DNA of 64,000 bases from an uncultured Pseudomonadota bacterium (GCA_902771695.1 CACXXP010000003.1:2640-66639), one strand, 5' to 3'. Positions 3,949-33,474 are shown, numbered from the stretch's first letter. Program-made: numbers and translations. Notes: generated by a model not told the origin, from the sequence alone.

Positions 3949-4053
3949 AACATTCCCTTTTTGTTGATTTTTTGATGTCTTTATTATGGCACATTATTAT
4001 GATTTGTCAATAAAAATATGTGTAAAACCTAATATTACATTGAAAATGTTAAA

Positions 4054-4791
4054 TTATTTATTTGGATTGTTGCGCAATCTGTAATATTCCCACATTGCTT
4101 CGGGGCCAATATCAGTCAGACGCATTTTGCGACGAACGCGAAAAATTCCGAAAAATTCCCGTTTCAGTGAGCTGAAACGTGCATATTCCCAATCTATGAT
4201 GCCGGTTATTTTCATAGTTTTTGGGTTAACCAATATATTACTGCACATATCACCATGGGTCAAACCAATATCATGTGAATCGCCGGTTTTTGGGCGCAAA
4301 TCGTCTAATTCGGGAAATTTAGAATTGAACATAGTGTATATAATTTGACCAAGTTCCGCCCCGATTTGTCGGCGATATTCATATACTTTCTTGAATGGCA
4401 AAGTCAGTAATACTTTGCCAGGGATAAATTTTGTTTCGTATACGGTGAAGATGCCAATTTGATGAATTTTTATGTTTGGAACCCGAACCGGCAAAACTGA
4501 TCGAACCGCATCTGTTATACGTTTTTCATTGGTGAATTTGGTAACGGAATCGTCTGTTAGATGAAATTTGCGAATTTTATATATCGTGCCGTTTGGGGTA
4601 ATAAAGACCAAACTGCCACCGCCCTTGGCAAGACGAAAATGTCGCCAATTTTGACGTGGAAACGCATGTCGTAATGCCACCAATTTGGCGTGATAATCAA
4701 ATAATTTTTCGCGTCTGAACCATTCACGCCATGCGCGAACCGGTATAAAGCACGACAAGACATAAAGAATGTCAAAAAATGTACGCCACAT
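4054..4791 (-). CDS. Aminoglycoside/choline-kinase-like phosphotransferase family protein
   Basis: Catalytic-loop-like THGDMCSNILVN and IIDWEYA (APH/protein-kinase-like fold motifs). Confidence 0.6.
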   Translation of the reverse strand: MWRTFFDILYVLSCFIPVRAWREWFRREKLFDYHAKLVALRHAFPRQNWRHFRLAKGGGSLVFITPNGTIYKIRKFHLTDDSVTKFTNEKRITDAVRSVLPVRVPNIKIHQIGIFTVYETKFIPGKVLLTLPFKKVYEYRRQIGAELGQIIYTMFNSKFPELDDLRPKTGDSHDIGLTHGDMCSNILVNPKTMKITGIIDWEYARFSSLKREFFGIFRVRRKMRLTDIGPEAMWEYYRLRNNPNK

Positions 4792-17789: not shown

Positions 17790-17818
17790 TTGACTTTTGG
17801 GGCGTTTTGTGATACAAT
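17790..17818 (+). promoter_or_regulatory. Near-consensus sigma70 promoter at the head of the phage-like cluster
   Basis: TTGACT (17790-17795), 17-nt spacer, TACAAT (17813-17818). Confidence 0.6.
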
Positions 17819-17843: not shown

Positions 17844-17869
17844 GTTCACACGTTTGTGTGAATTTTTTT
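17844..17869 (+). terminator. Intrinsic terminator 1 in the leader of the phage-like cluster
   Basis: TTCACAC-gttt-GTGTGAA followed by T7. Confidence 0.6.
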
Positions 17870-17870
17870 A

Positions 17871-17897
17871 TGCCGCACGTCATGTGCGGTTTTTTCT
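17871..17897 (+). terminator. Intrinsic terminator 2 in the leader of the phage-like cluster
   Basis: CCGCAC-gtcat-GTGCGG followed by T6. Confidence 0.6.
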
Positions 17898-17919: not shown

Positions 17920-18330
17920 ATGCAGATGGAAATACCAGAAACGCAAAACGAAACAATTTGTTTGGCGTATAACGTCGCGCGAATCGTTTATGCCGAAACA
18001 TTGGCTGTGTCATTACGCGTTGTGGAAGCATTAACTTCTATGATTTTTAATGCGGCGCACAAAGATATTCACAATATTGCAAAAATATTACGCGATAAAA
18101 ATATTTTTGAATCATTGAATAACGAATCGGTGCGTCATAAATATTTATTTGTTGATGTGTCCAAACATGATTTCCAAATGTGTTTGCGTGTCGCAATGCG
18201 AATGTTGCACGGCAACTTAGGTGATTCTTGTAATCACGCAACAATGTTTCATCGCGATGAATTATTACCAGATTGGGCGGTTGCGCGCGGATATGTCGCC
18301 GACATAGACGGCATATTATTTTACGCATAA
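17920..18330 (+). CDS. Cell-wall hydrolase (SleB/Hydrolase_2-like), putative endolysin
   Basis: The pattern ARIVYAE...ALTSMIFNA ... ATMFH...PDWA ... GILFY resembles Hydrolase_2. SD AAGGAA. An in-frame GTG at 17842 is an alternative start. Confidence 0.6.
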   Translation: MQMEIPETQNETICLAYNVARIVYAETLAVSLRVVEALTSMIFNAAHKDIHNIAKILRDKNIFESLNNESVRHKYLFVDVSKHDFQMCLRVAMRMLHGNLGDSCNHATMFHRDELLPDWAVARGYVADIDGILFYA

Positions 18331-18346
18331 ATGTACAAGGTGATAT

Positions 18347-18535
18347 ATGAGCAGTTTTATTCATGGTGGATTCTTGGCGAATCGCAAGACACAAATAATG
18401 ACATGTGTTGGAATACTGTCCGCATTGTGTACATATTTGGTTGGCGATTCGGATATATACGCCACAATCCAAGCAATCATTGCGGTGTGCGGAGTTTACC
18501 TGTGGCATAAATCAAATAATAACAAAGGAAAATAA
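18347..18535 (+). CDS. Holin-like small membrane protein
   Basis: 62 aa with two predicted TM helices and a charged C-terminus HKSNNNKGK. It lies directly after the lysin. Confidence 0.5.
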   Translation: MSSFIHGGFLANRKTQIMTCVGILSALCTYLVGDSDIYATIQAIIAVCGVYLWHKSNNNKGK

Positions 18536-18536
18536 A

Positions 18537-19193
18537 ATGGAAAATATACCTGAAAAGTTTCTGAACAAAGATGGAACATTAAACAGTGATGCGTTGATAA
18601 AATCATATTCAGAATTAGAAAAGAAAATGGGAAATATGATTTCTGTGCCAGATGAAAAATCTGACGAAGCAGCGCAAACCCGCTTTCGCCGGGCGATTGG
18701 CGTTCCCGACAGTGCAGACGATTATCCGCATAATGAATTGTTTGATAATGAAAATGTGCGACAAGAATTTTATAAAATTGGTTTAACAGGTGCCCAAGTT
18801 GAAAAAATTTACAACATTGCAGAAGAATTTTTATCACCGATTGTTTCTGAAATAATTTCTGTGCAACAAGAATCAAATGCGATTTCAGAATTGAAAAAAT
18901 TTTTTGGTTCTGATGAAAAAATGCGTGATGCATTTATCGCAATAAAATCATTCGGAGAAAAGTTTTTACCAGCCGATGCATTTAATGAACTGTGCGCTAC
19001 ACCCCAGGGAATACAAGGCATATACAAGATGATGCAATCCATGGAACCAAGTGTTGAAACAAATGTTTCGGATGTACAAAATTTAACAGATACAGATTTA
19101 AGAAATATGATGCGTGATCCAAAATATTGGCGTGATCATGATGAAGAATACATACGAAAAATAGAAAACGGATTTAAAAAATTATATTCATGA
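18537..19193 (+). CDS. Putative capsid scaffolding/assembly protein
   Basis: Acidic, helical 218-aa ORF upstream of the capsid gene, in the T7 gp9 position. SD AAAGGAAA. Confidence 0.5.
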   Translation: MENIPEKFLNKDGTLNSDALIKSYSELEKKMGNMISVPDEKSDEAAQTRFRRAIGVPDSADDYPHNELFDNENVRQEFYKIGLTGAQVEKIYNIAEEFLSPIVSEIISVQQESNAISELKKFFGSDEKMRDAFIAIKSFGEKFLPADAFNELCATPQGIQGIYKMMQSMEPSVETNVSDVQNLTDTDLRNMMRDPKYWRDHDEEYIRKIENGFKKLYS

Positions 19194-19313: not shown

Positions 19314-19622
19314 ATGGCATTCACATTCTTGAAACCAGCTGCAAAGAAACCAGCTGCAAAAAAACCAGCTGCTAAAAAGCCAGCTGCAAAGAAACCAGCT
19401 GTTAAAAAGCCAGCTGCAAAGAAACCAGCTGCTAAAAAGCCAGCAGTAAAGAAAGTTGCGGCCAAAAAACCAGTCGCAAAGAAAGTTGTTGCAAAGAAAC
19501 CAGCTGCAAAAAAACCAGCTGCAAAGAAAGTTGCAGCAAAAAAACCGGTTGCAAAAAAAGTTGCAGCAAAAAAGCCGGTTGCTAAAAAAGCTTGCGCAAA
19601 AAAATGTGCAAAGAAAAAATAA
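19314..19622 (+). CDS. Histone H1-like lysine/alanine/proline repeat protein
   Basis: MAFTFLK(PAAKK)n...CAKKCAKKK with strong SD GAAAGGAGAG. Resembles the AlgP, Hc1 and BpH class. Confidence 0.75.
19334..19612 (+). repeat. About 18 tandem 15-nt coding repeats (CCAGCTGCAAAGAAA variants)
   Basis: In-frame pentapeptide P/V-A/V-A-K-K units read directly from the sequence. Confidence 0.9.
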
Positions 19623-19641
19623 TATTGCATGATATTATGAA

Positions 19642-19668
19642 ATGCCCGTAAAATCGGGCATTTTTTTT
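19642..19668 (+). terminator. Intrinsic terminator after the H1-like gene
   Basis: ATGCCCG-taaaat-CGGGCAT followed by T8. Confidence 0.7.
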
Positions 19669-19679
19669 GTAAAAATTTT

Positions 19680-19712
19680 CAGTCAGATGAGTATATCTGA
19701 CTGAATTTTTTT
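19680..19712 (+). terminator. Second intrinsic terminator after the H1-like gene
   Basis: CAGTCAGAT-gagtat-ATCTGACTG followed by aaTTTTTTT. Confidence 0.65.
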
Positions 19713-19845: not shown

Positions 19846-20664
19846 ATGTCTGTTTCCATAGATCAAGTTTTTATTAAACAATTTGAAGCAGATGTCCATT
19901 TGGCATATCAGCAAATGGGAACCAAACTGCGTTCTACGATTCGCAGTAAATCTGGGGTTGTGGGTACATCTACAACATTTCAAAAAATTGGTAAAGGCAC
20001 GGCCAGCACAAAATCACGTCATGGTATTGTTCCAGTTATGAATCTGAATCATGCGCCGGTTGAATGCACCTTGCAAGATTATTATGCGGGCGATTGGGTT
20101 GATGCATTGGATGAATTAAAAACCAATATAGATGAACGCCGTGTTGTCGCATCCGCGGGAGCATATGCATTGGGACGCAAAACAGATGAATTAATTGTGT
20201 CCGCTATGAATACTGCAACGGCGTATGTTGGTGATTATTCTACAGGTCTTACCAAAACATTGATTTTAAGCGCATTGGAAAAGTTAAACGAAAAAGATGT
20301 TCCAGATGATGGTCGTAGATTCGGTGTTGTCGGTGTAAAACAATGGAATGAATTGTTGGGTATCACAGAATTTTCTTCGGCAGATTATGTCGGTGAAAAT
20401 TTGCCATTTATCAATGGGGCCGAAGCAAGAAAATGGCTTGGCATCACATGGGTTATGTATAACGATTTGCCATTGTCATCGTCAACACATCGTGATTGCT
20501 TTATCTATCACGCATCCAGCATCGGTCATGCATGTGGTCAAGAAGTCAAAACAGATATCACATGGCATGGTGAACGTGCCGCGCACTTTATCAGCAACAG
20601 CATGTCTCAAGGTGCCGTACTGATAGATGGTGATGGTATTGTGCGTGTTAAATGTGGCGAATAA
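19846..20664 (+). CDS. Major capsid protein, T7 gp10-like
   Basis: By-eye pattern match to T7 gp10 recalled from memory: FIKQFEADVHLAYQQ.., ..DELK.NIDERR..A.A..ALGRK.DE.. and C-terminal CFIYHASSIGHA. SD AAAAGGAAAG. Confidence 0.65.
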   Translation: MSVSIDQVFIKQFEADVHLAYQQMGTKLRSTIRSKSGVVGTSTTFQKIGKGTASTKSRHGIVPVMNLNHAPVECTLQDYYAGDWVDALDELKTNIDERRVVASAGAYALGRKTDELIVSAMNTATAYVGDYSTGLTKTLILSALEKLNEKDVPDDGRRFGVVGVKQWNELLGITEFSSADYVGENLPFINGAEARKWLGITWVMYNDLPLSSSTHRDCFIYHASSIGHACGQEVKTDITWHGERAAHFISNSMSQGAVLIDGDGIVRVKCGE

Positions 20665-20913: not shown

Positions 20914-20923
20914 TTGTTAGATT

Positions 20924-20942
20924 GGGCCGGATTTTCCGGCCC
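20924..20942 (+). terminator. Hairpin with a weak U-tract (possible attenuating terminator)
   Basis: GGGCCGG-atttt-CCGGCCC followed by gcatttt. Confidence 0.4.
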
Positions 20943-20973
20943 GCATTTTAATTTTAATAAATAGGAATAAAAA

Positions 20974-21492
20974 ATGCTGACGAAAATAGATTTATGTTCA
21001 ATGGCATTGTTAAAACTTGGCGAGAAACCAATCCAATCTTTATCAGAAGATACGGCGGTCGCAAAATTGGGACGGACATTCATAGATGTTGTCATAGATG
21101 AGCTGTTGGCCATGCATCCATGGCGTTTCGCGTGTCAGTCATATGATTTAAATGCGAATACAGATGGAACATTTGATATACCAACAGATGTGTTGCGAAT
21201 CGTCAAGGTCAATGGCCAGATTATGCAAAATAAAATCATTTCACAAAACGACAAAACAACGATAAACGCCATTGTTCGTGTTCCACCAGAAAATTTTCCA
21301 AGTTATTTCGTAGCGGTTGTTGCAACCAGGTTGGCAATGGAATTTTGTATGCCGATTACTTCAGATCAAACGTTGTTTCGGACTTTGGTGGCATTATATG
21401 AAACAGAATTGCAAAATGCGAAGTTTATAGACAGCACAACATCCATCAATCCACGGATAGAAAATTTTTCTTTGATAGATGTTAGATTCTAA
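20974..21492 (+). CDS. Tail tubular protein A / gatekeeper, T7 gp11-like
   Basis: The N-terminus LCSMALLKLGEKPIQSLSED......HPWRFA parallels the remembered T7 gp11 ILASIGEPPVSTLEGD......GWTFN. 172 aa. Confidence 0.55.
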   Translation: MLTKIDLCSMALLKLGEKPIQSLSEDTAVAKLGRTFIDVVIDELLAMHPWRFACQSYDLNANTDGTFDIPTDVLRIVKVNGQIMQNKIISQNDKTTINAIVRVPPENFPSYFVAVVATRLAMEFCMPITSDQTLFRTLVALYETELQNAKFIDSTTSINPRIENFSLIDVRF

Positions 21493-21498
21493 AGGCAT

Positions 21499-23217
21499 AT
21501 GGGGGAAATTATGGGAAATTTTATTAAAACGCAAACATCGTTTGCCAATGGCGAAGTATCGCCAAATTTTTTTGCAAACTCCGATATACATGGTCTTGCC
21601 TATATGGAAAATATGGATGTTATACCCGGTGGTGGTATAGCGCGGCGTGCGGGGTTAAAATCTGTGGCAACCCTGCAATCCCAGGCAAGATTGGTTTCTT
21701 TTTCTGTATCAGAAAATGAGAATTATATTCTTGCCATTACAAATAACAGTATGCGCATATTTGCGAATGACCAATTGGTTCAAGATATTGTTGTGCCGTG
21801 GGCGGCATCTGATTTGCACCTGTTACAATATGCGCAACGATTTGGAACGATGATTTTTGTGCATCCGGATTACAAACCGCAAACGTTATTGCGCGAAAAT
21901 GGAATATTCAAACTTAAAGAGTTTGTGTTTTCTTATAACAATGCATCAGATAATATAAACATGCCATTTATGCGTTTTGAAGATTCAGAAAATATAACGA
22001 TTGATCTTGAAGCTGTGGCAGATGGCGTAAAATTGACCACTAATCATAACTTTTGGACAGCGGATAATGTTTATGGGCACCTGTCCATGTTGGGAAAAAC
22101 ATTTTTGATTATCCGTTATATAGATGAAAAAAATGTGATTGCAACATGTAATGGGGTATTCACATATCCAAATGCACCATTAAGTGATTGGGCCGAGGCC
22201 GTATTCAGTTATCGTCGTGGTTGGCCAACCAGTATCACATTTCACCAGAATCGTTTGGTTTTTGGCGGTTCTAAATCATGGCCGGGCGGCGTATGGATGT
22301 CATGTGTGGGCCAACATATGAACTTTGATACAGGAACAGGGTTAGATGATGAGGCAATATTTTTCACATTGCTGTCTGGACGCCGTCAACATATATGTAC
22401 ACTAATCAGCAGTGATAATTTACAAATCCTTACATCCGAAGGTGAATGGGCTGTATCAAATAAACCACTGACACCGGAATCTGTTGATGTCAAAATGCAT
22501 ACATCTGTGGGCAGTCCCGCGGACATATATTTGCCGCCACAATCCATAGAAGGTAAAACTATCTTTATATCAAAAAATAAAAAAGATATTCGTGAATTGG
22601 CATTGGATGATTTTGGTCAGAATTATAATGCAAATTGTCTGAGTACGATGTCGGCGCATTTAATAAATTTGCCAATAGATATTGCATATAATAAAAATGA
22701 TAAACGTTTGTTTGTTGTTATGAACGATGGAGATATGGCGGTATTAAATCACGATGAATCCGTCGGAATATCAGCGTGGGGGCGTTATACCACAAACGGT
22801 AAATTTTATTCTGTGGCGGTGTGTAATGGACGTACATTTGTTGTGACCAAACGAAATGATAGTTTCTATCTTGAACGATTTGACAATTCAGAAATGGTTG
22901 ATGCAACAAATAAAAAATATACGGTGCGAGCAATTGGTATGCCTATTATGTCGTCGGGGCATAATGTGCGAAAAATGCAAATCAGAAAAATCGTTGCCAG
23001 ATTGCACAATTCCAAAACGTTATTCATAAACAATTGGCGTGCAGAATTACCAACAGAAATATACGCAGACGGTGCAATTGGATATTCGGGTGATGTATCA
23101 CTGAATACCGTCGGTACATGCCGACCGATTGTTGATGCCCCGTGGGAAATATCAACAACCGATGCAATGCCGATGACGGTTCTTGGGGTAACCATTTACG
23201 GCAGATATCAAATATAA
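21499..23217 (+). CDS. Tail tubular protein B / nozzle, T7 gp12-like (shorter)
   Basis: FANGEVSPNFF......RRAGL and FHQNRLVFGGS....W.S.....NF parallel the remembered T7 gp12 GGISQQP....KRPPL and FFRNRLGFLS....NF. Confidence 0.55.
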   Translation: MGEIMGNFIKTQTSFANGEVSPNFFANSDIHGLAYMENMDVIPGGGIARRAGLKSVATLQSQARLVSFSVSENENYILAITNNSMRIFANDQLVQDIVVPWAASDLHLLQYAQRFGTMIFVHPDYKPQTLLRENGIFKLKEFVFSYNNASDNINMPFMRFEDSENITIDLEAVADGVKLTTNHNFWTADNVYGHLSMLGKTFLIIRYIDEKNVIATCNGVFTYPNAPLSDWAEAVFSYRRGWPTSITFHQNRLVFGGSKSWPGGVWMSCVGQHMNFDTGTGLDDEAIFFTLLSGRRQHICTLISSDNLQILTSEGEWAVSNKPLTPESVDVKMHTSVGSPADIYLPPQSIEGKTIFISKNKKDIRELALDDFGQNYNANCLSTMSAHLINLPIDIAYNKNDKRLFVVMNDGDMAVLNHDESVGISAWGRYTTNGKFYSVAVCNGRTFVVTKRNDSFYLERFDNSEMVDATNKKYTVRAIGMPIMSSGHNVRKMQIRKIVARLHNSKTLFINNWRAELPTEIYADGAIGYSGDVSLNTVGTCRPIVDAPWEISTTDAMPMTVLGVTIYGRYQI

Positions 23218-23236: not shown

Positions 23237-23584
23237 ATGGGACAGATTGTTTCAGATGTATCAAATATATTGGAATATCAAAATGACAAAAAGAACGCGG
23301 CCAAGACCAAAAAGCAAATTTTGGCCGATATCGCAAAAGATGATCAGGAAAAACAAAACTTGGTTAACAAAGTTCTTGCAAAGCAACGTGCAAAATATGG
23401 TGCATCGGGCATGGCAACCAAAGGTCAAACCGAAGATGCGGTATTGGCGCGTATGAAACAAGAAACCGAACAACCGTATGATTCTAAAAAAGCGGCAAAT
23501 ATTAAAAAATTGAAAAATACCAAAACAACAAAAAAGAATCTGTTGCTAACCATGCTTGCACGATTGGACAAATTGGTCGGATAA
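23237..23584 (+). CDS. Small Lys-rich coiled-coil phage-cluster protein (gp13-like or small-terminase position)
   Basis: 115-aa ORF with strong SD AAAGGAGG. No domain recognised. Confidence 0.45.
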   Translation: MGQIVSDVSNILEYQNDKKNAAKTKKQILADIAKDDQEKQNLVNKVLAKQRAKYGASGMATKGQTEDAVLARMKQETEQPYDSKKAANIKKLKNTKTTKKNLLLTMLARLDKLVG

Positions 23585-23588
23585 TGCA

Positions 23589-24182
23589 ATGAGTGTATAT
23601 AATCAGTTCCTGGATTCGTGGAATTCGGTTATCGGTTTCACCGCTCCAGAACATCACCACCAAATGACAGATTTCTTGGTGGGTGTCATGAACGGTGGTT
23701 CGCATCATGGATTGTTGATGGCATTCCGGCATTCTGGAAAATCAACAATAGTCGGAATTTTTGCCGCATGCACATTATTTTTGCATCCAGAAACACGCAT
23801 TTTGATATTATCTGCGGAAACTCATTTGGCCACGCGCATGGTGATGCATATTCGTAATATTTTGGAAAATCATCCGTGGTGCAGTGATTTGATTCCGAAA
23901 AACAAACGTGAATGGGCCGAAAACAAAATAACAATCAACAGGCCTGTTGGAATTCGTGAACCATCAGTGGTATGTCAAGGTGTATACGGAAACATAACTG
24001 GTATGCGCGCAGATTTAATAATATGTGACGATGTAGAGGTCCCGAATACATGCAACACGATGCGAAAACGTTCTGGGTTGCGGGATAAATTGCGTGAATT
24101 AGATTTTATACTGTCACCAAACGGAACGATGATTTACATCGGAACGCCACACACATTGGATACGATATACAGAACCGCTTAA
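23589..24182 (+). CDS. Terminase large subunit, N-terminal ATPase fragment
   Basis: Walker A FRHSGKST and Walker B DLIICDDVE. The ORF ends just after IYIGTPHTLDTIY. Confidence 0.7.
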   Translation: MSVYNQFLDSWNSVIGFTAPEHHHQMTDFLVGVMNGGSHHGLLMAFRHSGKSTIVGIFAACTLFLHPETRILILSAETHLATRMVMHIRNILENHPWCSDLIPKNKREWAENKITINRPVGIREPSVVCQGVYGNITGMRADLIICDDVEVPNTCNTMRKRSGLRDKLRELDFILSPNGTMIYIGTPHTLDTIYRTA

Positions 24183-24841
24183 TCTTGTTCGGAATCAGAT
24201 GATGCAGGTAAAGAACTGGTCAACGCATGCAGACGACGTAATAACTTTGTGCCTTCTTCGCCGAACATTGGCAAATATGTTTCATATTCGGGCATATCAA
24301 CCTGAAGTTGTGCACGTAAACGGTCGTTTATTGGTTTATCTACTACCTCGTTGGCATTCAGCCAGATTTTGTACGCATTCCACATACGTGCAATTTGGGT
24401 GAATTTATCAAACAAATCTGTGTCATTGGCCAATATTGCCTGTACAGACATGACCCAATCTTTACCAAAACTACGAATCACAGGTGTGGCAACAAATTTT
24501 TCAAGACCTTGCTGGTCAGGGGTAAAATCATTAATGGCTGTTATCAATTCGCGCAAATCATGTTCCGAAATTTCTGTGTGCAAAGATTTTTCGGCGAATG
24601 CACCACCATATGGCAATAATTCGCGTGCAATAGAATCGACGGGTGTCTTGCCACTGCGTAAATTATTTATATGTTCAACCAGAAACTTACCTGTGGGCAA
24701 CGCGGCAAGTTCATCAAGAATTTCATCCGTTGATTCAGCAATAAAGATCTTGTTTAACGCCACCCAACCACCTTCTATGACATGTGCTTGGCGGTACAAG
24801 TTTAACAATCTTTGTGCGATAACGCTTGCCTTGGCTTTCAT
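24179..24841 (-). CDS. Hypothetical protein (last gene of the dnaB module)
   Basis: 220-aa ORF. Its stop codon overlaps the terminase-N stop codon (24179-24182). No domain recognised. Confidence 0.55.
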   Translation of the reverse strand: MKAKASVIAQRLLNLYRQAHVIEGGWVALNKIFIAESTDEILDELAALPTGKFLVEHINNLRSGKTPVDSIARELLPYGGAFAEKSLHTEISEHDLRELITAINDFTPDQQGLEKFVATPVIRSFGKDWVMSVQAILANDTDLFDKFTQIARMWNAYKIWLNANEVVDKPINDRLRAQLQVDMPEYETYLPMFGEEGTKLLRRLHALTSSLPASSDSEQD

Positions 24842-24870
24842 CTCGTTTAATCCCCCTTGCTTAAACAGGT

Positions 24871-25881
24871 TTATTCAGACAAAACCATTATAACCTTGTG
24901 CATTGTCTGGGCGGTAATTTTTTCATCGGGCGAAACCATTTGACCATATATTTTGCCCTTGGAATCTTTACGAACAACCGCGATATTGGCCTGGATTGCA
25001 TCATCTGGTTTCAATGCTTTGAAATCTGTATCAATAAACACCGCCAAATCACCGACCGTTGCATTGATTTTAGAATCGGCAAACACGTATGATTTTTCCG
25101 GGATAAAACCGCCAAGACGTTTAGAATTCGGAACAATCGCATAAACACCTTTGCGGCCTTCAAGATTTGCCGGGGCATTAATCATCGTTTTGTCAGATTT
25201 TTTGAACGTAATATTTTTACCTTCGGCGCGTCCGAACACCGGAACCAATTTACGACGGGCGTTTTCATATAATTTGGCACTGTATAAATGTGCCTGGGAA
25301 TCACCGAAATCTGCGGTTGAATCACCGGGTGACAACACGGCTTTGACCCGTTCTTTGACCTTGTTCATTTGTTTGGTCAATTCACCGTTTTTGTATAATT
25401 CGGCAATTTTATCAAACATGCTTTCAACCGAGTGAGCAAAAGAACGCGCAAGTGGTTCAATTTCATTTTGATAAACTTCGCGTTGGCCGACCTCTATTTT
25501 ATGGTACACAGACAAAGTCATGCCGGCATCTTTTGCCGCCTGGGCAATTGTTTTTCCAGATTGTTGGCGAATTTTACGCAGACCGCTGCCGAATAATTTC
25601 AGACCGCTGTCTTCATTATCACTCATACGGCGGGTGATTTCATCCTGCCATTTTGATGCGACTTCGTCGGTATCCTTGATGAATATGTCTGAAAGTTTGC
25701 ACCCAAGTATGTTGCAAATATTCAATAACTGTTTTTGATTTAGGCGACGGACACCCTTTTCAATCTTGGAAACAGCCGACAACGACAAACCAGAACGACG
25801 GGCCAGTTCGGTCATTTTCATCCCTGCACCAAGGCGGATGTTACGAATATTATTTGGAAATATGATTTCTTCTTGGGCCAT
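24871..25881 (-). CDS. Dual-HTH XRE-family regulator with a C-terminal CI/LexA-like beta domain
   Basis: Two HTH_XRE-like segments (IRNIRLGAGMKMTELARRSGLSLSAVSKIEKG; LRKIRQQSGKTIAQAAKDAGMTLSVYHKIEVG). The C-terminus starts VPVFGRAEG, like the linker of S24 repressors. SD AAGGAG. Confidence 0.65.
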   Translation of the reverse strand: MAQEEIIFPNNIRNIRLGAGMKMTELARRSGLSLSAVSKIEKGVRRLNQKQLLNICNILGCKLSDIFIKDTDEVASKWQDEITRRMSDNEDSGLKLFGSGLRKIRQQSGKTIAQAAKDAGMTLSVYHKIEVGQREVYQNEIEPLARSFAHSVESMFDKIAELYKNGELTKQMNKVKERVKAVLSPGDSTADFGDSQAHLYSAKLYENARRKLVPVFGRAEGKNITFKKSDKTMINAPANLEGRKGVYAIVPNSKRLGGFIPEKSYVFADSKINATVGDLAVFIDTDFKALKPDDAIQANIAVVRKDSKGKIYGQMVSPDEKITAQTMHKVIMVLSE

Positions 25882-25903
25882 TTAAAACTCCTTGTATAAA
25901 ATC

Positions 25904-25922
25904 TTGACAAAATGATAGTCAA
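25904..25922. promoter_or_regulatory. Palindromic operator-like site in the regulator's promoter region
   Basis: TTGAC-N9-GTCAA lies between the dnaB stop and the regulator start. Confidence 0.35.
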
Positions 25923-25958
25923 TTTTTAGAAACATGGCAAGAAAATAATTATGCGAAA

Positions 25959-27518
25959 TTACAAATCAATATCATCTGGTATCGCATCAATGTCTATGGG
26001 GGTTGGTGCGCCAGATGATTCATCTGATTCTGGGATTGGCGTATCCACAAATTCAGGAACATGATTCGGCATATCGTCCAGATTATCAAATAAACTGAAT
26101 TCCGCCAAGAATGCCAAATGAATCGTGTCGGTGCGACCGTGACGGTTCTTGCCGATAATAAGGTCTGCCTTACCTTTTGCTTTTTCATAGCGCATTTGCC
26201 ATGAATTTACAGATTTTTCATTGGGTGTATTGGAAATTCTGTGCGATGGGTCACGGTTTTGCAGATAATATTCTTCACGGTATGTAAACAGTACGATGTC
26301 AGCATCTTGTTCAATGGACCCCGAATCACGCAAGTCCGCCAATTGTGGACGTTTATCATCGCGTGATTCAACACTGCGTGACAATTGAGATAACGCAATC
26401 ACAGGCACATTTAATTCTTTGGCCAGCATTTTTAACCCACGTGTAATTTCAGATAATTCTTGAACACGATTGTCTTTGTTTTTACCGCCCGGCGAGGTAA
26501 TAAGTTGCAAATAGTCAATCACAATCAGCGCCAAACCATTATATTTGCGGGCCAACCTGCGTGCACGTGTGCGAATCATCGGCACAGACATCCCCGGCGT
26601 GTCGTCAATAAACAATGGAATACGACTGATTGCATCAGAAAATTGGGTCAGTTTCAGAAAATCTTCATCGGTCAAAGATTTGCCTTCGCGCATCGCGGAT
26701 GCCGGAATACGCGATTGTGACGATAAAACACGTGCCGCCAATTCGGATGCGCCCATTTCCAAACTAAAAAATGCAACGGCACCTGTATATTGTGGATTGG
26801 CGCGTCCAGAATATATGGCGTTCGCCGCATTAAATGCGATATTCATTGCCAATGCGGTTTTACCCATACCTGGACGGCCGGCAATGATAATTAAGTTGGA
26901 TTTATGCATACCACTGATTGCATGATCCAAATCGGTCAGACCTGTTGTCAACCCAGATAAATTACCGTCGGCCTTGTACGCGATTTCGGTTTCCGTCAGT
27001 GCCTCTTTTAATGCATTTGCAATTGGAACAACATCGCGTCCGGTTTCGCCGGTTGTCGCCAAATTAAACAGTTTTTGTTCGGCTTTTTCTATTTGTGCCG
27101 ATACCGGATTGTCCAAATCTTCTACAAATGCGTCATCAGTAATGGATTGCCCCAGATTTATCAAATCGCGACGCAGGGCATTATCATGGACGATTCGCGC
27201 ATATTGTTCAACGTTTACAACGGTCGCACTGGCCCCGGCCAATTGGGTCAAGTAATCAACACCGCCCACAGATTCCAATACACCTTGTTGGTCCAAATAA
27301 TTCTTGATAGTGATTATATCAAACTGGGCCCCGGTTGCGAACAAGCGCATCGCCAGTTTATATATTTCTTGATGGGCGGGGTGCGAAAAATCTTCGGGTC
27401 GCAAGAAATCAGAAATCTTTTCTAATGCGCGGTTGCTGACCAATACCGCCGCCAAAACGGCCTGTTCGGCTTCTATATTCGTTGGTAAAGTTTTGGGAGT
27501 GAAGTCCATGTCTGACAT
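25959..27518 (-). CDS. dnaB: Replicative DNA helicase DnaB
   Basis: N-terminal LPTNIEAEQAVLAAVL, Walker A GRPGMGKTA, DYLQL and the RecA-like core. The true start is taken as MSDMDF (27518), not the 605-aa track ORF. Confidence 0.9.
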   Translation of the reverse strand: MSDMDFTPKTLPTNIEAEQAVLAAVLVSNRALEKISDFLRPEDFSHPAHQEIYKLAMRLFATGAQFDIITIKNYLDQQGVLESVGGVDYLTQLAGASATVVNVEQYARIVHDNALRRDLINLGQSITDDAFVEDLDNPVSAQIEKAEQKLFNLATTGETGRDVVPIANALKEALTETEIAYKADGNLSGLTTGLTDLDHAISGMHKSNLIIIAGRPGMGKTALAMNIAFNAANAIYSGRANPQYTGAVAFFSLEMGASELAARVLSSQSRIPASAMREGKSLTDEDFLKLTQFSDAISRIPLFIDDTPGMSVPMIRTRARRLARKYNGLALIVIDYLQLITSPGGKNKDNRVQELSEITRGLKMLAKELNVPVIALSQLSRSVESRDDKRPQLADLRDSGSIEQDADIVLFTYREEYYLQNRDPSHRISNTPNEKSVNSWQMRYEKAKGKADLIIGKNRHGRTDTIHLAFLAEFSLFDNLDDMPNHVPEFVDTPIPESDESSGAPTPIDIDAIPDDIDL

Positions 27519-28350
27519 AGTATATGAAAAAAATGTTTTTTCAACACCTTTTTTGGCTGGGTATGATGAATTGAAAATACCAATAATTGACAATACCGGA
27601 AATCCAGTTTGGCCGGCGGTTTTCCCAATTGACAAGATAAATAAAATCAAAGAAACCGTTGGTGAACGGCATTTTTTGGCCCAAATGATGTTGGAATATG
27701 TGCCAGATGGACGGGTCAGATTGGACCCCGGAACCATTAAAATGTATGACAATGATTTTGATGGTCGTTCATGCAAAATTGGTGATAATCAAATTACCGG
27801 GGTCGGTGTTTATTGGGACCCGTCCAGTGGACGTAAAAATGCCGATAACAGTGTATGTGTTTTGGTGTATCGTGACGATAAAAATAAAAGGGTCTTTATT
27901 CACGATATTTTGTATATGGTTGTACCAGATGCGGTTGAATACCCGCTGTCTTATCAATGTGATTTGGTATTGGATTTTGTGCGGCGGCACCGTGTGCCCA
28001 GTATTTCCATAGAAACAAATGGTATCGGTGGGGCGTTGCCCGAAATAATGCGAACAATTATTTCCCGCGAAAATCGTGGAATACAAATCCGCCCTGTAAA
28101 TAACAGTCGGAATAAACAAAATCGTATTTTAGATGCGATTGAACCATTATTAAATACAGGGCGTCTGTATGCGCATCGGCGAATAACCCAGACCCCAATA
28201 ATATCAGAAATGTTGGCCTGGACGCCATTTGGTGGTGGTGAACACGATGACGGATTGGATGCAATTGCAGGTGCGATTGCAATGCAACCAATTGCGATAC
28301 ATCCAATTGGTCAAAATGTTTTTACTGCAAATACAAACTTTAATGTTTAA
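27508..28350 (+). CDS. Terminase large subunit, C-terminal nuclease fragment
   Basis: RNaseH-like acidic motifs GVYWDPSSG and EHDDGLDAIAGA. The ATG at 27508 has SD GGGAG 8 nt upstream. Confidence 0.65.
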   Translation: MSDIVYEKNVFSTPFLAGYDELKIPIIDNTGNPVWPAVFPIDKINKIKETVGERHFLAQMMLEYVPDGRVRLDPGTIKMYDNDFDGRSCKIGDNQITGVGVYWDPSSGRKNADNSVCVLVYRDDKNKRVFIHDILYMVVPDAVEYPLSYQCDLVLDFVRRHRVPSISIETNGIGGALPEIMRTIISRENRGIQIRPVNNSRNKQNRILDAIEPLLNTGRLYAHRRITQTPIISEMLAWTPFGGGEHDDGLDAIAGAIAMQPIAIHPIGQNVFTANTNFNV

Positions 28351-28372: not shown

Positions 28373-29599
28373 ATGAAATACGATTTACAAAAAATGTATT
28401 CACGTGCAATTGCAATGCGTGAACCATGGATTACCCGTTGGGCCGATGCGCGCAAATATACAATGCCGACCACAAACGAAGATTCGGCGATGCTGTTTGA
28501 TGCAACGGCTGCAGATGCCGCAGATAATTTGGCGGCGTGTATATATTCACTATTAACACCGCCGGAATCATTGTGGTTAACCCTGGTTCCCGAAGGCCCC
28601 GATTCCCCAGATGCGTCTGTGGCAACGGCTGCACTGCGCGCAAATCTGAACGATTCTAATTTTTATACGACGGTTCATCAGTGCTATATGGATTTAGTGA
28701 CATTGGGAACCGCGTGTTTGTTCATGGCCGAAAGTCCGATTGGGACATCCAGTGCATTTTCATTTACGGCGATTCCAATGTCAGATATCGCCATTTTACC
28801 GAATGCAGTATTTCATACGGCATCTGTTTCAATTGCGGATGTTATGGCGCGTTATCCAGAATGGACACCAACACATGAAATCGCCGACAAATTAAAGAAA
28901 GATAATGATTTTTCTGTGCGTTTGGTGCAATCGTTGATTGGTACAGATTTTACTGCATGGTTGGATGTCGGGGGCGATATAGAAAACAATATAGTATCGC
29001 GTGGAACATTTGAAACAAATCCATATTTAATTTTTAGGTGGTCGGTAACATCTGGGGAACAATATGGGGTCGGCCCAATATTGCGTGCATTGCCCGATAT
29101 TAAGACAGCAAACAAGGTCGTTGAATTGGTGTTGAAAAACGCGACCATCGCCGTCAGTGGTATATGGCAGGCCGATGATGACGGGGTTATAAACCTGAAT
29201 AATATAAATTTAACCCCAGGCGCAATAATCCCCAAGGCCGTAGGCAGTACAGGTTTAACCCCACTGGCAACGGGTGCAAATTTTGACGTATCACAAATAA
29301 TATTGAAAGATTTGCGTGACCGCATACGGCACACATTACTTGCAGACCGATTGGGATTATTGTCTGATAAAGAAATGACTGCCACAGAAATTCTTGCACG
29401 CAATGCAGATATGTTGCGTATTTTAGGGGCAACGTACGGGCGTTTGTTGCATGAATTTATACGACCATTGTGTGACCGTGGATTGCAGATATTATCACGT
29501 CGTGGCGTCATAGATAAAGTATCACTGCACAGTGATGCAGAATTGAAATATATTGCACCGATTGCGCAAATGGTGGCAGAGAATAATACTCTGATTTAA
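28373..29599 (+). CDS. Portal (head-to-tail connector) protein, T7 gp8-like
   Basis: The N-terminal pattern AMREPWITRWADARKYTMP....DATAADAADNLAA..YSLLTPPESLW is typical of the gp8-type connector family as remembered. 408 aa, follows the terminase. Confidence 0.6.
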   Translation: MKYDLQKMYSRAIAMREPWITRWADARKYTMPTTNEDSAMLFDATAADAADNLAACIYSLLTPPESLWLTLVPEGPDSPDASVATAALRANLNDSNFYTTVHQCYMDLVTLGTACLFMAESPIGTSSAFSFTAIPMSDIAILPNAVFHTASVSIADVMARYPEWTPTHEIADKLKKDNDFSVRLVQSLIGTDFTAWLDVGGDIENNIVSRGTFETNPYLIFRWSVTSGEQYGVGPILRALPDIKTANKVVELVLKNATIAVSGIWQADDDGVINLNNINLTPGAIIPKAVGSTGLTPLATGANFDVSQIILKDLRDRIRHTLLADRLGLLSDKEMTATEILARNADMLRILGATYGRLLHEFIRPLCDRGLQILSRRGVIDKVSLHSDAELKYIAPIAQMVAENNTLI

Positions 29600-29610
29600 C
29601 GAGGATAAAA

Positions 29611-29817
29611 ATGCGAGATATAGAATTGGCATATGCCAAAACTTTTTCTGGGGAATCGGGTGCGATGGTAATATCGCACCTGCGCAAAATAACCATAGAA
29701 CGTGTGTTGGGACCAAATGCCACCGATGCGGAATTACGCGCAACTGAAGGCGCACGTGCATTGGTTCACCAAATAGAAAGTTTAATATTACGGGGGCGCG
29801 AAAATGCAAAAACATAA
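29611..29817 (+). CDS. Small phage-cluster protein
   Basis: 68-aa ORF with SD GAGGA. It overlaps the next ORF by 14 nt. Confidence 0.45.
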   Translation: MRDIELAYAKTFSGESGAMVISHLRKITIERVLGPNATDAELRATEGARALVHQIESLILRGRENAKT

Positions 29818-30061
29818 TGGAATTGCGGGAATCATTGACACATTACGCAACGGGTGGTTTTTAATAGCGTTTATCGCAGGACTGATTTATTGGGTGGCAC
29901 GTCAAGATAATGCGTTGGTGGAACTGGACAGGTTGACCGTTCGTATGACGACTTTGGAAAATCGCACAACAGTACTGGAAACAGGAATAGGGCAACTGCA
30001 ATTAAAGATAGATGGAATAAAGGAAGATTTAACCCTGATTAAAACGGCCGTTATTAAATAA
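29804..30061 (+). CDS. Small membrane-anchored coiled-coil protein (holin/spanin-like)
   Basis: One TM helix (WFLIAFIAGLIYWV) followed by heptad-like LTVRMTTLENRTTVLETGIGQLQLKIDGI. Confidence 0.45.
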   Translation: MQKHNGIAGIIDTLRNGWFLIAFIAGLIYWVARQDNALVELDRLTVRMTTLENRTTVLETGIGQLQLKIDGIKEDLTLIKTAVIK

Positions 30062-30159
30062 TTTATTGATATTTATTTCTTCGTTTGTCCCCAAAATTCC
30101 CATTGACACATAGTTGCGATTTCCTTCAAAATGTTATTGAGCAACGGAAAGGATACCCC

Positions 30160-32034
30160 ATGAGAAAATACCTTGTTTTAACATCTATATTTGCATTGTC
30201 TGCGTGTGGCGGCGGCGGTGGGTCCGGTGATTTCGGCGGACACGCGGCACACCCGACAACACCGGGCAATCCACCAATTCATATGCAGGGGTTTAGTGGC
30301 GGACAAACAGTACACGCAAATAATGCGACACTTACCAACATGTCTTCGTATACCGTAGATTATGGAACAGATGAAGACACAACCAAACAGGCAATGATTG
30401 ACTATGTTAATACACATCTAGGCAACAGTCGTGGCATTTCCCAAGACCGTTCTGCAACACGTTCTTCATCCATGCGTGCACGTGACGGTGAGGTAGATGC
30501 AGAAGAATTTGCCCGTGCTGATGCGGCGATTACCGAAATGAAACAGGTGCTGTATGACATGGTTGGAAAGCCGAATAATGCCGCATTAAGAACGTATGTC
30601 ACACGGTACAGATATGCCGTGGTTAACGCATTAAAAATGCAAGATGTTGACGTCACAAACGAAACAAGTATTGATGATTTGGTGGCCGCATTTAACACAT
30701 TGAAATCTGACAAGTCATGGACAACCGACAATATAATGGCGAATTTGGATGAATTTGATGCAACCGAGTTTCATATAACAAAATTTAGAATGGAAGACAA
30801 TGTCAAATTGCATGATGCAGGGGACGCAAATGCATATTTTCAATTTGATTTGGATTCCGGTGGCACCATTACCCGTGTAGCGCTGTTTGAAGGTGATGTA
30901 CCAAATGATTATGGTTGGTTTGATAAAAACAATAATCCAAATGGCAATCAGTTTGTAAAAACGACATATGGGTACAGATTTACAATGGGAAATTTGGCAA
31001 CTGATACGCCGGGCTTAACAGACAATCAAATTGCGGCATTTACTTGGTTTAATGGTATTACAGGTAAAGACGACATTACAAATCTGCGTTTTAATAACGA
31101 TGATTCAACACTTACCAATAGTGCCAAAAAGGCGGCCATGATACAAACCATTAATCGGGAATTTAATGACTTTAAACGGGGGCAACATGACCATGAACAC
31201 GATGATGATATCGAACTTGTGCGCGCGCAGTATCTTGCACTTATAAACGCTGCGTTTACAGATTTGGAAGACGATGGTCATGATGTTGTTTTTGGCCAAC
31301 AAGTTACGCCGTTGGATTTGACTGTGACAATGATTGGCGAGGGTAAAAATTTACATCTGCAATATTCTGATTTTGGGTATGCGGATTTAAAGGATGTACA
31401 TGAACAATCTAATGGTACATTCAAAGAAAGTCATACGTATGTTCCGTATGCCGGTGGATACGATGCCCGCATAGTCAATCCAGAGGAAGATGTGACATTT
31501 ACCGGAACTGTGGTTGCGGGTATTCAATGGAGCACCAAAGCCGCAAATGGCGACGAAGATGGTGATGGAATGTTGGTTCGAAATGAAAATGCGCAATTAA
31601 CATTTGATCATACAACGGGAAAGTCGACTTTAGTTATGAATAACCTGGTCAATGACGCTGGTAAGAAATGGTATAATGTCACGGTCAGTGGCGATTTCAG
31701 TGGCGATCGTGCGGCAGATTTAAGGTTCGAATTTGATGATACAGGAAAAACCACTGACGCCGCGTATGATTTTATTTCTAATCCAGAAGATATTTCATTC
31801 GCTGCAGAAGATTGGAATGAAAGTGATAATCTGTTTAAACAAACCAATTCTCTTGATGATACCATCGACTATCGTGGTAATGCGAGGGTAGATTACTATG
31901 GTGACAGCCCCACGTCTGCACCAGGGGAAGTTACCTCCACATTTAGTTTCAGTGAGGAACAACACATAAATGACGGCCATGGCAATGAAGACCATCATGA
32001 GATTGGAATCTATGGTGCATATGGTGGTCATTAG
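30160..32034 (+). CDS. Surface lipoprotein, TbpB/fHbp-style (poly-Gly linker, His-rich patches), putative Slam substrate
   Basis: Lipobox LSACGGGGGSG, His/Asp clusters GQHDHEHDDD and GHGNEDHHE, and C-terminal beta-rich segments ending EIGIYGAYGG as in TbpB-type barrel domains. Confidence 0.5.
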   Translation: MRKYLVLTSIFALSACGGGGGSGDFGGHAAHPTTPGNPPIHMQGFSGGQTVHANNATLTNMSSYTVDYGTDEDTTKQAMIDYVNTHLGNSRGISQDRSATRSSSMRARDGEVDAEEFARADAAITEMKQVLYDMVGKPNNAALRTYVTRYRYAVVNALKMQDVDVTNETSIDDLVAAFNTLKSDKSWTTDNIMANLDEFDATEFHITKFRMEDNVKLHDAGDANAYFQFDLDSGGTITRVALFEGDVPNDYGWFDKNNNPNGNQFVKTTYGYRFTMGNLATDTPGLTDNQIAAFTWFNGITGKDDITNLRFNNDDSTLTNSAKKAAMIQTINREFNDFKRGQHDHEHDDDIELVRAQYLALINAAFTDLEDDGHDVVFGQQVTPLDLTVTMIGEGKNLHLQYSDFGYADLKDVHEQSNGTFKESHTYVPYAGGYDARIVNPEEDVTFTGTVVAGIQWSTKAANGDEDGDGMLVRNENAQLTFDHTTGKSTLVMNNLVNDAGKKWYNVTVSGDFSGDRAADLRFEFDDTGKTTDAAYDFISNPEDISFAAEDWNESDNLFKQTNSLDDTIDYRGNARVDYYGDSPTSAPGEVTSTFSFSEEQHINDGHGNEDHHEIGIYGAYGGH

Positions 32035-32043
32035 GCATATATG

Positions 32044-32076
32044 AATCCGTTAGAATGAACATTCTAACGGATTTTA
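32044..32076 (+). terminator. Hairpin terminator after the lipoprotein gene
   Basis: AATCCGTTAGAATG-aac-ATTCTAACGGATT followed by tt. Confidence 0.5.
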
Positions 32077-32085
32077 TACGTTTTT

Positions 32086-33474
32086 ATGTTAAGGTTCATA
32101 ATTTGTTTTTTATTAATTTTTGTTCAGCCCATGTTATCGTGGGCTGCATCTGGTATAGGATATAAAGAAAAACAAATATCTGAAACAGTTCAATCTGATA
32201 ATACACCACATCTGGTTATGTCTGCATTAGATGCAATGAAACTTGCCGGGCAATTGGTTAAAAAAGGTGATTATGAACATGCGCAACAAATACTTACCAA
32301 ATTGCCACAGACAGATAATATAGAGGTTGAAACAGAACGTTGGTATTTGTTGGCACAAATTTTTCAACGCACCGGCGATTATGATAATGCGATAAAAATC
32401 TATCGTCAAATATTGGATGAACAACCTGATTTAGCGAAAGTTCGTTATGAATTGGCACTGTGTCATATGGCCCAGAAACAGTGGTATCGCGCCGATTATC
32501 ATTTGCGTCTTGCGATGGCCCATGATGATTTGCCGGATGAAGTGCATCGCATGATGAATTACTATAGATACTTTGTGCGTAAAAATAAAAATTGGAATGT
32601 GTGGTTTAACTTTGGCGCCGCCCCAGACAATAATGTGAATCAGGTGGCCGGCGGTGAAGAATGTATCACAAATGAATATGGGGTATTCTGTCATCAATTA
32701 CCGGATCCTATATCTGCCATTGGATACAATTTAACCTTGGGTGGAAATTATGAATCCAAATTAGGTGAACATTGGCGTTGGAAAAGTGATGCAAATCTGT
32801 ATTCTAATATTTACAGTAAACACGATTATGATGATTTATACCTTGGTGGTTCAACTGGACCACGTTATGTATGGAACAGTGGGGACATATGGGTTGCCGG
32901 AATATTTTCAAGACGATTCTATGGTTGGGATGGATACAATTTATCATATGGTGGTAAAATGGATGCAAATTTTGACTTGTCGCGACATTGGGGGGTGGGA
33001 CTAGCCCTTGCCATGACGAATAACCTGTATGATGATTATGCGAAATATATGAATGGACAGACATATTCAGGTAATTCGCGAATATCGTATTCTTTTGATG
33101 CATCAAAATATTTGATTCTGCGTGGTGGCGTCACACGTGAATATGCCAACAATGATATTTATAAAAATTGGCGGTACACATTGGCACTGGGATTTGGGGC
33201 GGAATTGCCGTGGGGATTTCATGTTTATATAGAACCATCTTTGGGACGGACGAAATACGATGGCCCACGTTGGGCGGTTAAAAATGGTTCATACAGGCAG
33301 ATTGTTGAAAATGATTGGACACAACGTTATGCGATATCATTATCAAATAATAAATTTGATATATGGGGATTTGTGCCTACATTAACCTTTTCGTACAGCC
33401 GTCGCGATTCAAATATATGGCAACGCGAATACGACAAAACAGCGATAGAATTTACATTTAACCAGCGATTCTAG
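32086..33474 (+). CDS. Surface lipoprotein assembly modifier (Slam, DUF560-like): TPR N-domain plus beta-barrel
   Basis: Signal peptide, TPR-like repeats (GDYEHAQQIL.., GDYDNAIKIYRQIL..), then WNVWFNFGAAPDNNVNQ and a Gly/Tyr-rich barrel ending ...FTFNQRF. Confidence 0.6.
   Translation: MLRFIICFLLIFVQPMLSWAASGIGYKEKQISETVQSDNTPHLVMSALDAMKLAGQLVKKGDYEHAQQILTKLPQTDNIEVETERWYLLAQIFQRTGDYDNAIKIYRQILDEQPDLAKVRYELALCHMAQKQWYRADYHLRLAMAHDDLPDEVHRMMNYYRYFVRKNKNWNVWFNFGAAPDNNVNQVAGGEECITNEYGVFCHQLPDPISAIGYNLTLGGNYESKLGEHWRWKSDANLYSNIYSKHDYDDLYLGGSTGPRYVWNSGDIWVAGIFSRRFYGWDGYNLSYGGKMDANFDLSRHWGVGLALAMTNNLYDDYAKYMNGQTYSGNSRISYSFDASKYLILRGGVTREYANNDIYKNWRYTLALGFGAELPWGFHVYIEPSLGRTKYDGPRWAVKNGSYRQIVENDWTQRYAISLSNNKFDIWGFVPTLTFSYSRRDSNIWQREYDKTAIEFTFNQRF

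Follow-up and report, generated by a model that had tools for sequence, protein, structure and literature searches.

Large terminases (TerL) are textbook single-chain motors. Genes in pieces are known from T4-like phages and include the NrdA gene of Aeh1 that is split by mobE, the split gp43 DNA polymerase and T4 gp39/gp60. In herpesviruses the gene UL15 consists of two exons about 3.5 kb apart that flank the opposite-strand genes UL16 and UL17, an arrangement found throughout the lineage and resolved by splicing of the mRNA (PMC3079670). Among the gene transfer agents (GTAs) FpGTA was called the first podovirus-like GTA-like element in a paper of 2026 (PMC12946183). Here, we analyze a stretch of 64,000 nucleotides from an uncultured Pseudomonadota bacterium (hereafter the window) in which a TerL gene of the T7 gp19 type is divided into two open reading frames (ORFs), terL-N and terL-C, by a 3.3-kb module on the opposite strand that contains dnaB, the gene of a regulator with helix-turn-helix (HTH) domains and the gene of a 220-residue protein (p220). 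The literature searched contained no account of a split terminase, of this element or of a podovirus-type alphaproteobacterial GTA. Judged from sequence comparison, the two ORFs probably encode a functional two-polypeptide terminase and belong to a vertically inherited, GTA-like cluster that derives from a podovirus of the T7/BPP-1 type and resides in a chromosome of the Candidatus Enterousia type.

A preliminary description, made from the sequence alone, had outlined the layout as TerL-N, three minus-strand genes and TerL-C with overlapping junctions, and its coordinates (Table 1) and motifs proved accurate. The P-loop ATPase motifs typical for T7 gp19-type terminases are located in TerL-N, namely Walker A (RHSGKST), Walker B (LIICDDVE) and motif III, and its C-terminal end is IGTPHTLDTIYRTA followed by the stop codon. 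The C-terminal RNase H-like nuclease with its conserved acidic residues is provided by TerL-C (VYWDPSSG and HDDGLDAI). In T7 gp19 both activities reside on one polypeptide, whereas here they are distributed over two ORFs separated by 3.3 kb in every one of the 80 species investigated. TerL-N is recognized as Pfam Terminase_6N at the cut-off and covers positions 276-460 of the TerL profile PHROG 38 (E = 1.6e-40); TerL-C covers positions 468-702 of the same profile and matches Pfam Terminase-T7_RNaseH-like (PF22530, 2.7e-9) as well as PF17289 (2.2e-5). These ranges, obtained by the alignment that had been proposed as a check, show that the ORFs represent neighbouring segments of one terminase that do not overlap and that no large part is missing or duplicated, and alignment to intact homologues agrees with their contiguity.

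The initial view of a gene split into an ATPase and a nuclease ORF has to be revised, because the break is inside the ATPase domain and TerL-C holds one core strand and the lid helices in addition to the nuclease. The sequence of intact relatives (463-505 aa, about 42-46% identical) is GTPHTxxTIYNTx(0-7)xDGFLxGxxxLKIP in this region, where the split proteins show GTPHTLDTIYRTA before the stop codon of TerL-N and MSDIVYEKNVFSTPFLAGYDELKIP in TerL-C. For the intact homologue P0074 AlphaFold2 gave a model (mean pLDDT 90.6) with the order strand (189-198), motif III with GTP (199-201), a coil of 21 residues, the strand with LKIP (220-224), lid helices (241-259) and nuclease (from about 278). Foldseek assigned the TerL fold to this model (PhiV-1 TerL at 7e-29, with T4 gp17, HK97 and Sf6 also matched) and sequence matches to PDB entries 4BIJ and 8DGC were obtained at about 8e-26. 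The break maps to the modelled 21-residue coil between both core strands, and the loop at this site has between 5 and 13 aa in intact homologues. According to the model it is thus a variable surface coil just after motif III, between strands of the RecA-like core, and not the linker between ATPase and nuclease. With a break at this position the ATPase must receive one of its core strands and its lid from TerL-C, so that the arrangement would represent fragment complementation and not domain separation.

A TerL divided at the same loop was detected in an unrelated lineage, where the two ORFs overlap in ATGGGTGA. It is present in two assemblies with different neighbours (L176, 8001-9480, and L177, 8001-9441), one of which is a contig of 1.47 Mb; the C piece starts with a PKFPE-repeat linker, an ORF of 149 aa is located upstream and capsid genes were not seen nearby. 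This independent split supports the idea that the loop tolerates a break. Two further observations concern single sequences. In a TerL from a soil metagenome (L178, 3310-4047) the same loop is interrupted by an in-frame TAA (IYDEKIANG, stop, DSLIIPLF) on a contig that ends shortly thereafter; pseudogenisation, an error of sequencing or recoding may account for it. In P0003, a TerL-C homologue of 402 aa, about 120 residues are duplicated internally in tandem, which is either an assembly artefact or real.

The occurrence of the split layout was followed by a scan with DnaB, using one genome per GTDB species. It returned 80 loci titled Candidatus Enterousia or unnamed gut/rumen Alphaproteobacteria, and all genomes examined were metagenome-assembled. 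Enterousia belongs to the order Rs-D84 with genomes mostly below 1 Mb (PMC12306168). All DnaB matches listed fall into the split clade, and the split layout was seen in each of the 80 species-level loci as well as in every further contig inspected, a recurrence that cannot be due to chance. Every locus of sufficient length has the same gene order and orientation, p85-Bbp19-portal-TerL-C, then DnaB-HTH-p220 and finally TerL-N-p115-nozzle-capsid. The exact TerL-N protein was found on at least 22 contigs of identical layout, and proteins corresponding to TerL-C only (280-282 aa, 57-99% identical) occur in many uncultured Alphaproteobacteria.

This comparison of orthologous loci had also been proposed, and both halves turned out to be intact in the sampled species. 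Where the sequence was complete, uninterrupted ORFs were found for TerL-N (82/82, 196-232 aa), TerL-C (80/80, 280-283 aa), DnaB (83/83), portal (76/76), p115 (79/79) and p85 (75/75). The ratio of nonsynonymous to synonymous substitution rates (dN/dS; median Nei-Gojobori values from pairs with 0.05 < dS < 1, which represent the closer pairs only as dS is high for most) amounts to 0.051 for TerL-N and 0.090 for TerL-C. As references served DnaB (0.047), portal (0.044), the HTH regulator (0.060) and p220 (0.078), and the values for nozzle, p115 and p85 are 0.088, 0.17 and 0.076, respectively. The ATPase motifs AFRHSGKST, ADLIICDDVEVPNT and GTPHT.DTIY (in 82 TerL-N sequences) and the TerL-C motifs YWDPS (conserved core WDPS), ETNG and HDDGLDA are invariant or nearly so. 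Protein identities reach from 72 to 93% for DnaB across the 80 species, and from 70 to 94% for the HTH regulator and 77 to 96% for the capsid protein across the clade. Pairwise distances of the phage-derived proteins correlate with the DnaB distances (r = 0.79-0.88), and in 69 of 82 loci birA is located beside the cluster. Intact ORFs, low dN/dS, invariant motifs and co-divergence with DnaB together rule out simple pseudogenisation and argue for vertical inheritance of a functional unit. Plain decay of a prophage, with the ORFs as pseudogene remnants of a terminase destroyed by the insertion, would account for an interrupted gene in a small cluster that has neither integrase nor replication genes. 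It is highly improbable if one considers that both ORFs are intact in 80 and more loci with DnaB identities down to 72%, that their dN/dS is 0.05 and 0.09, that catalytic residues are invariant and that the host genomes are strongly reduced (below 1 Mb). The locus had been described as tidier than random prophage decay. Both the proposed two-polypeptide terminase and the idea of a domesticated packaging machine fit the intact halves, the invariant catalytic motifs, the low dN/dS ratios, the co-divergence with DnaB and the conserved site next to birA.

Both junctions of the inserted module are compact. On the left the stop codons of terL-N and p220 overlap in TTAA (24179-24182), as had been described for the window, but this 4-nt overlap is found in 58 of 81 loci only and the distance is otherwise between -84 and +16 nt. 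The C-terminal tails of TerL-N are variable (1-30 residues) and often acidic, and constraint on synonymous sites was not seen at this junction. On the right an 11-nt palindrome had been reported from which both proteins start with MSD. It exists in a subset of species, but the ATG at 27518 is replaced by ATA in 48 of 81 loci and the conserved start of dnaB is at 27509 (MDFTPK). The general feature of the right junction is the tetranucleotide CATG shared by this ATG and that of terL-C at 27508. The Shine-Dalgarno (SD) sequence GGGAG predicted 8 nt upstream of the latter was recovered at 27495-27499, and an SD of the type GGGAG or AGGGG together with the ATG of TerL-C is conserved across loci. 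In all species the terL-C frame is open for about 25-70 codons upstream of the ATG (27433-27507 in the window, plus strand) because it is antisense to the conserved N-terminus of DnaB, and this explains the long ORF starting with TTG in mechanical ORF lists.

The first terL-C codons harbour a predicted promoter of dnaB. The pattern TTGAAA-N16-TAnnnT was recovered on the dnaB strand of 79 of 82 loci; in 63 of them the -10 element ends exactly 7 nt before the dnaB ATG, which suggests that the mRNA is leaderless in these cases. A leader of 22-40 nt is inserted in 16 loci, and the one leader that was inspected has a ribosome-binding site of the GAAGGAA type. The promoter corresponds to terL-C codons 4-13 approximately, within the segment of codons 1-18. 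Accordingly placed is the third-position entropy minimum of terL-C, with 0.36 in codons 1-10 and 0.51 in codons 11-20 as compared to a gene mean of 1.24; among eight genes with about 2,650 codons the terL-C start is the sole segment below 0.55. A milder dip in the first ten dnaB codons (0.63 versus 1.17) fits the location of the terL-C ribosome-binding site there. The codons of I and V in DIVY are the complement of the dnaB -10 hexamer, and in a subclade with TAACAT as -10 element these residues are M and L. The resemblance of DTIY and DIVY on both sides of the break, which had been interpreted as a diverged short duplication, may thus originate from the promoter rather than from duplication, and the original interpretation is doubtful.

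Likeness of these two peptides and the tidy junctions would also be expected if the 3.3-kb module were excised in particle-producing cells in the style of the sigK skin or nifD elements, thereby restoring terL; loss of dnaB could be tolerable there, if such cells lyse anyway. Elements of that type carry a recombinase and are bordered by direct repeats. Among the called genes of related loci no recombinase was found in or near the module, and the longest common string of the junction windows averages 6.4 nt in comparison to 7.2 nt in random windows. The left junction shifts among species, both halves possess a start, a stop and a ribosome-binding site of their own, and a search of 5.8 billion proteins gave no fused TerL exceeding 46% identity to the joined halves. 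Programmed rearrangement, one of the options considered at the beginning, is therefore very unlikely. Joining at the level of RNA or protein, through a spliced intron like that of UL15, trans-splicing or a split intein, has the mirrored layout of UL15 with its exons around UL16 and UL17 in its favour. In a scan of 16-33 kb no Rfam intron family was found at E ≤ 1 and only chance-level matches to small RNAs appeared. The segments have their own SD, ATG and stop codon, and TerL-N terminates in variable tails. Pfam, PHROG and NCBIfam revealed neither a Hint/intein domain nor a homing endonuclease at the break, where the insert consists of DnaB, HTH regulator and p220 and the contiguous profile coverage leaves no room. 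Such joining appears exceedingly improbable. With intein, intron, recombinase and junction repeats all missing from these searches, rejoining of the halves is altogether unlikely.

The helicase inside the terminase gene was compared with two families. It exceeds the cut-off of the full-length NCBIfam equivalog NF006606 (608.8 bits, cut-off 540) and remains below that of phage_DnaB TIGR03600 (417, cut-off 498.65). By elimination among the PRK models of DnaB we take NF006606/PRK09165 to be the alphaproteobacterial one. By these profile scores the protein is a host-type alphaproteobacterial DnaB and not part of a phage module. Hence, of the suggested capture of a replication module by the packaging machinery the nesting within the terminase holds, but the module is of host type. 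DnaB is, along with the portal protein, the slowest-evolving gene product of the locus. A second replicative helicase is unlikely in genomes below 1 Mb, and so is the maintenance of idle phage DNA. The PDB sequence matches of the HTH regulator cover its XRE-type HTH part only. For the all-helical p220 1101 homologues were collected, and none of the 120 listed has a Pfam domain or an informative name; its AlphaFold2 model (pLDDT 81.6) found no PDB fold match with E < 1, and Pfam, PHROG and NCBIfam gave no match either.

Table 1. Position of the phage-derived genes, the nested dnaB operon and predicted signals in the window (nucleotide numbers of the whole stretch).
Feature	Position	Strand	Remarks
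Sigma-70-type promoter	17790-17818	+	TTGACT-17-TACAAT, extended -10 TG; heads the cluster
Tandem terminator-like hairpins with U-runs	17844-17863, 17872-17890	+	Leader of the first gene
Putative endolysin	17920-18330	+	136 aa, first cluster gene; weak matches to Hydrolase_2 (5e-4, below cut-off) and PHROG endolysin (3e-5)
62-aa protein	18347-18535	+	Called in related loci; no significant family match
Scaffold, T7 capsid assembly protein family	18537-19193	+	PF05396, E = 3.9e-8
Lysine-rich AKKP-repeat protein	19314-19622	+	102 aa, histone-H1/HC2-like; Pfam HC2, E = 2.2e-17
Major capsid protein	19846-20664	+	Pfam Phage_capsid_2, E = 9e-72
76-aa conserved phage protein	20683-20913	+	phrog_18004, E = 7e-12
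Tail tubular protein A / adaptor-like	20974-21492	+	phrog_394, E = 1.8e-34
Nozzle / tail tubular protein B-like	21499-23217	+	phrog_376, E = 2.7e-84
p115	23237-23584	+	115 aa, immediate 5' neighbour of TerL-N; may be a small terminase or an internal protein
TerL-N	23589-24182	+	197 aa; ATPase core up to motif III (GTP), with Walker A and B
p220	24179-24841	-	220 aa, all-helical; last gene of the dnaB operon
XRE-type regulator	24871-25881	-	Two HTH domains (Pfam HTH_3 x2) and a C-terminal domain
DnaB	25959-27509	-	Host-type replicative helicase; conserved ATG 27509, species-specific ATG 27518
dnaB promoter	27517-27544	-	TTGAAA-16-TACTAT, inside terL-C codons
TerL-C	27508-28350	+	280 aa; last ATPase core strand, lid helices, linker, RNase H-like nuclease
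Portal (head-to-tail connector)	28373-29599	+	PF12236, E = 1e-76
Bbp19-like small phage protein	29611-29817	+	PF25181, E = 1.8e-9
p85	29804-30061	+	85 aa, last conserved cluster gene; intact in 75/75 loci

The phage-derived cluster extends over about 12 kb (approximately 17.8-30.1 kb), and outside it the window consists of ordinary chromosomal DNA with tRNAs and ORFs of housekeeping size. Its putative endolysin is of the same family as the lysozyme found beside intact TerL in the relatives described below. The HC2-like ORF between scaffold and capsid has a good SD and was detected by tblastn in 35 of 82 loci, although its low complexity may hide others; from its composition the protein might condense DNA. 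No family match was obtained for p115 in Pfam, PHROG and NCBIfam. In some species, but not in that of the window, there is an extra gene between p115 and TerL-N that encodes 182 aa (L038, 13956-14504, minus strand) and whose N-terminus looks tail-fibre-like as judged by eye only. In a few species TerL-C and portal are separated by a gene of roughly 1 kb whose product is similar to outer-membrane beta-barrel proteins (L060, 8123-9160, minus strand, and also L058); in L060 the protein shows a signal peptide and the C-terminal residues RLTF. On the 3' side of the cluster the window contains a surface-lipoprotein gene and a Slam-type gene (TPR_Slam/SlipAM) at 30085-33474. This pair is not present in L009 and L010, where UPF0102 or other genes follow directly, and looks like a lineage-specific insertion outside the element.

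The promoter at the head of the cluster is among the top-scoring (10/12) promoter-like sites of the region. Upstream of the first gene CTTGAC[T/A]T is found in 68 of 70 loci and is near-invariant in the 59 that could be aligned, in which the -35 and the extended -10 element (TGnTAnnAT) are strongly conserved. A generic promoter scan gave no enrichment (51 sites versus 46.1 ± 6.8 in shuffles), and only the two of its sites later shown to be conserved were used. In the leader hairpins 8 of 9 predicted pairs covary with compensatory double changes among the 59 loci. A late promoter that is gated by termination has its precedent in PR'-tR' of phage lambda, and by analogy the cluster head looks like an antitermination-gated late promoter. 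Strong terminator-like hairpins were further observed within the same-strand gene run at 19639-19705 (after scaffold and HC2-like gene) and 20923-20943 (after capsid), and these fit a need for antitermination to express the genes downstream. The perfect 12-bp inverted repeat at 19678-19705 was considered as an operator in common with the junction palindrome and rejected, as the motif is not convincingly enriched; it looks like a bidirectional terminator.

From these data the following course of events can be proposed. An ancient event would have placed dnaB, the HTH regulator and p220 in reversed orientation into the variable TerL loop after motif III. Since then the terminase would have been made as two chains, with TerL-N contributing most of the RecA-like ATPase core and TerL-C the core strand that follows, the lid helices and the nuclease, and both chains would associate non-covalently to form the packaging ATPase-nuclease. 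The junctions would have been compacted later, with the dnaB promoter placed in the first 18 or so terL-C codons, a shared CATG and the terL-C ribosome-binding site in the first dnaB codons, and the cluster presumably makes GTA-like particles. Some observations weigh against this proposal. Neither a recognizable tail fibre nor a small terminase was found in the cluster of the window with Pfam and PHROG, TerL-C evolves about twice as fast as TerL-N, and a conserved terL-C promoter inside dnaB was not detected, with reduced synonymous diversity confined to the first ten dnaB codons or so. As this promoter was not detected, we propose that transcription of terL-C, portal, Bbp19 and p85 would start at the conserved promoter at 17.8 kb, pass its double terminator by antitermination and read through antisense to the dnaB operon. 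The fast evolution of TerL-C, the missing clear small terminase and a break that cuts the RecA core could also mean that the cluster is functional but its halves are not a packaging terminase, the particles being empty or protein-carrying or the halves being recruited separately. This is unlikely, as the catalytic motifs of ATPase and nuclease are all invariant, both halves stay next to the portal gene and co-diverge with it, and a second lineage tolerates the split at the same loop. A more far-reaching version of the two-chain terminase can be put forward tentatively and is rather doubtful as a whole: the cluster would be a working podovirus-type GTA of a gut symbiont with a reduced genome, its motor an obligate two-chain ATPase divided through the RecA core, and its late transcription, starting at a constitutive-looking promoter gated by the two terminators and running antisense through the only dnaB operon of the host, would create an either-or switch between replication and particles. 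If this were true, switching on the particles would collide head-on with expression of the helicase, and conversely.

Compact clusters of about 10-13 kb with intact TerL (about 42-46% identical) were found in other Alphaproteobacteria (L011, L012, L013, L174 and L175). They have portal, Bbp19, scaffold, capsid, tube A, nozzle, TerL and Hydrolase_2 lysozyme in common with the split clusters, and differ by a divergent S24 LexA-like repressor at one end, the lysozyme located after TerL, another gene order and varied chromosomal sites. Similarity of the HTH regulator to these S24 repressors was not found. IMG/VR contains many such contigs, mostly of 10-17 kb (L094-L173). This widespread integrase-less family of podovirus-like clusters of 10-13 kb, seen in L011, L012, L174, L175 and IMG/VR, comprises candidates for mini-prophages, satellites or GTAs. 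In L013, from a 2.1-Mb genome, host-type PilZ (1000-1389) and EamA (3630-4550) genes are found on the opposite strand between structural genes. Together with the barrel-like gene of L060 this indicates that the dnaB insertion is an extreme case of a general interspersion with host genes. The order of genes, lysis-scaffold...TerL-N, dnaB, TerL-C-portal here versus portal...TerL-lysis in the relatives, differs beyond the insertion. Simple insertion, inversion and reciprocal loss from two copies were considered as routes to the present order, and the data favour none of them.

If the two-chain reading is correct, the locus provides a natural break inside the ATPase core that is kept across a genus-level clade, and it shows where the fold tolerates fragmentation. 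It would be a ready-made two-piece system for the study of motor assembly. The cluster is also a candidate podovirus-type GTA-like element in uncultured gut/rumen Alphaproteobacteria with genomes below 1 Mb, and the fact that genomes of this size keep 12 kb of viral genes speaks for a real benefit. Moreover, it represents an extreme case of gene nesting, in which an essential host operon lies inside a viral gene with overlapping starts and the host promoter within viral codons, in a layout convergent with the UL15 arrangement.

Compared with the known GTAs (RcGTA, BaGTA and FpGTA) the locus is likewise a phage-derived head-tail cluster, with lysis gene(s), that is fixed in its lineage, vertically inherited and under purifying selection. 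Integrase, excision and phage replication functions were not found among the called genes within +/-10 kb of ten loci (L001-L010), and the only replication gene in the element is the host-type dnaB. The cluster differs from these GTAs in its T7/BPP-1-type podovirus ancestry, which is not the siphovirus type of RcGTA, in the split terminase and in the nested essential host operon; as a class it would count as GTA-like. With the terminases of T7 (gp19) and PhiV-1 the two halves share sequence and fold family, Walker A and B, motif III, the RNase H-like nuclease and the neighbourhood of the portal gene, yet the canonical TerL is a single chain and here two polypeptides are broken within the ATPase domain and encoded 3.3 kb apart. 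Closest in architecture is herpesvirus UL15, in which a TerL-homologous gene is also present in two coding pieces around opposite-strand genes. Unlike UL15, the pieces described here have their own start and stop without signs of splicing, and what lies between them are housekeeping genes of the host (dnaB) instead of viral ones. The closest functional parallels may be seen, by analogy, in the genes in pieces of T4-like phages. There, too, the gene of an essential enzyme is divided by inserted DNA and its products are thought to reassemble, but the inserts are homing endonucleases or short sequences in replicating phages, whereas here it is a host operon in a chromosomally fixed element.

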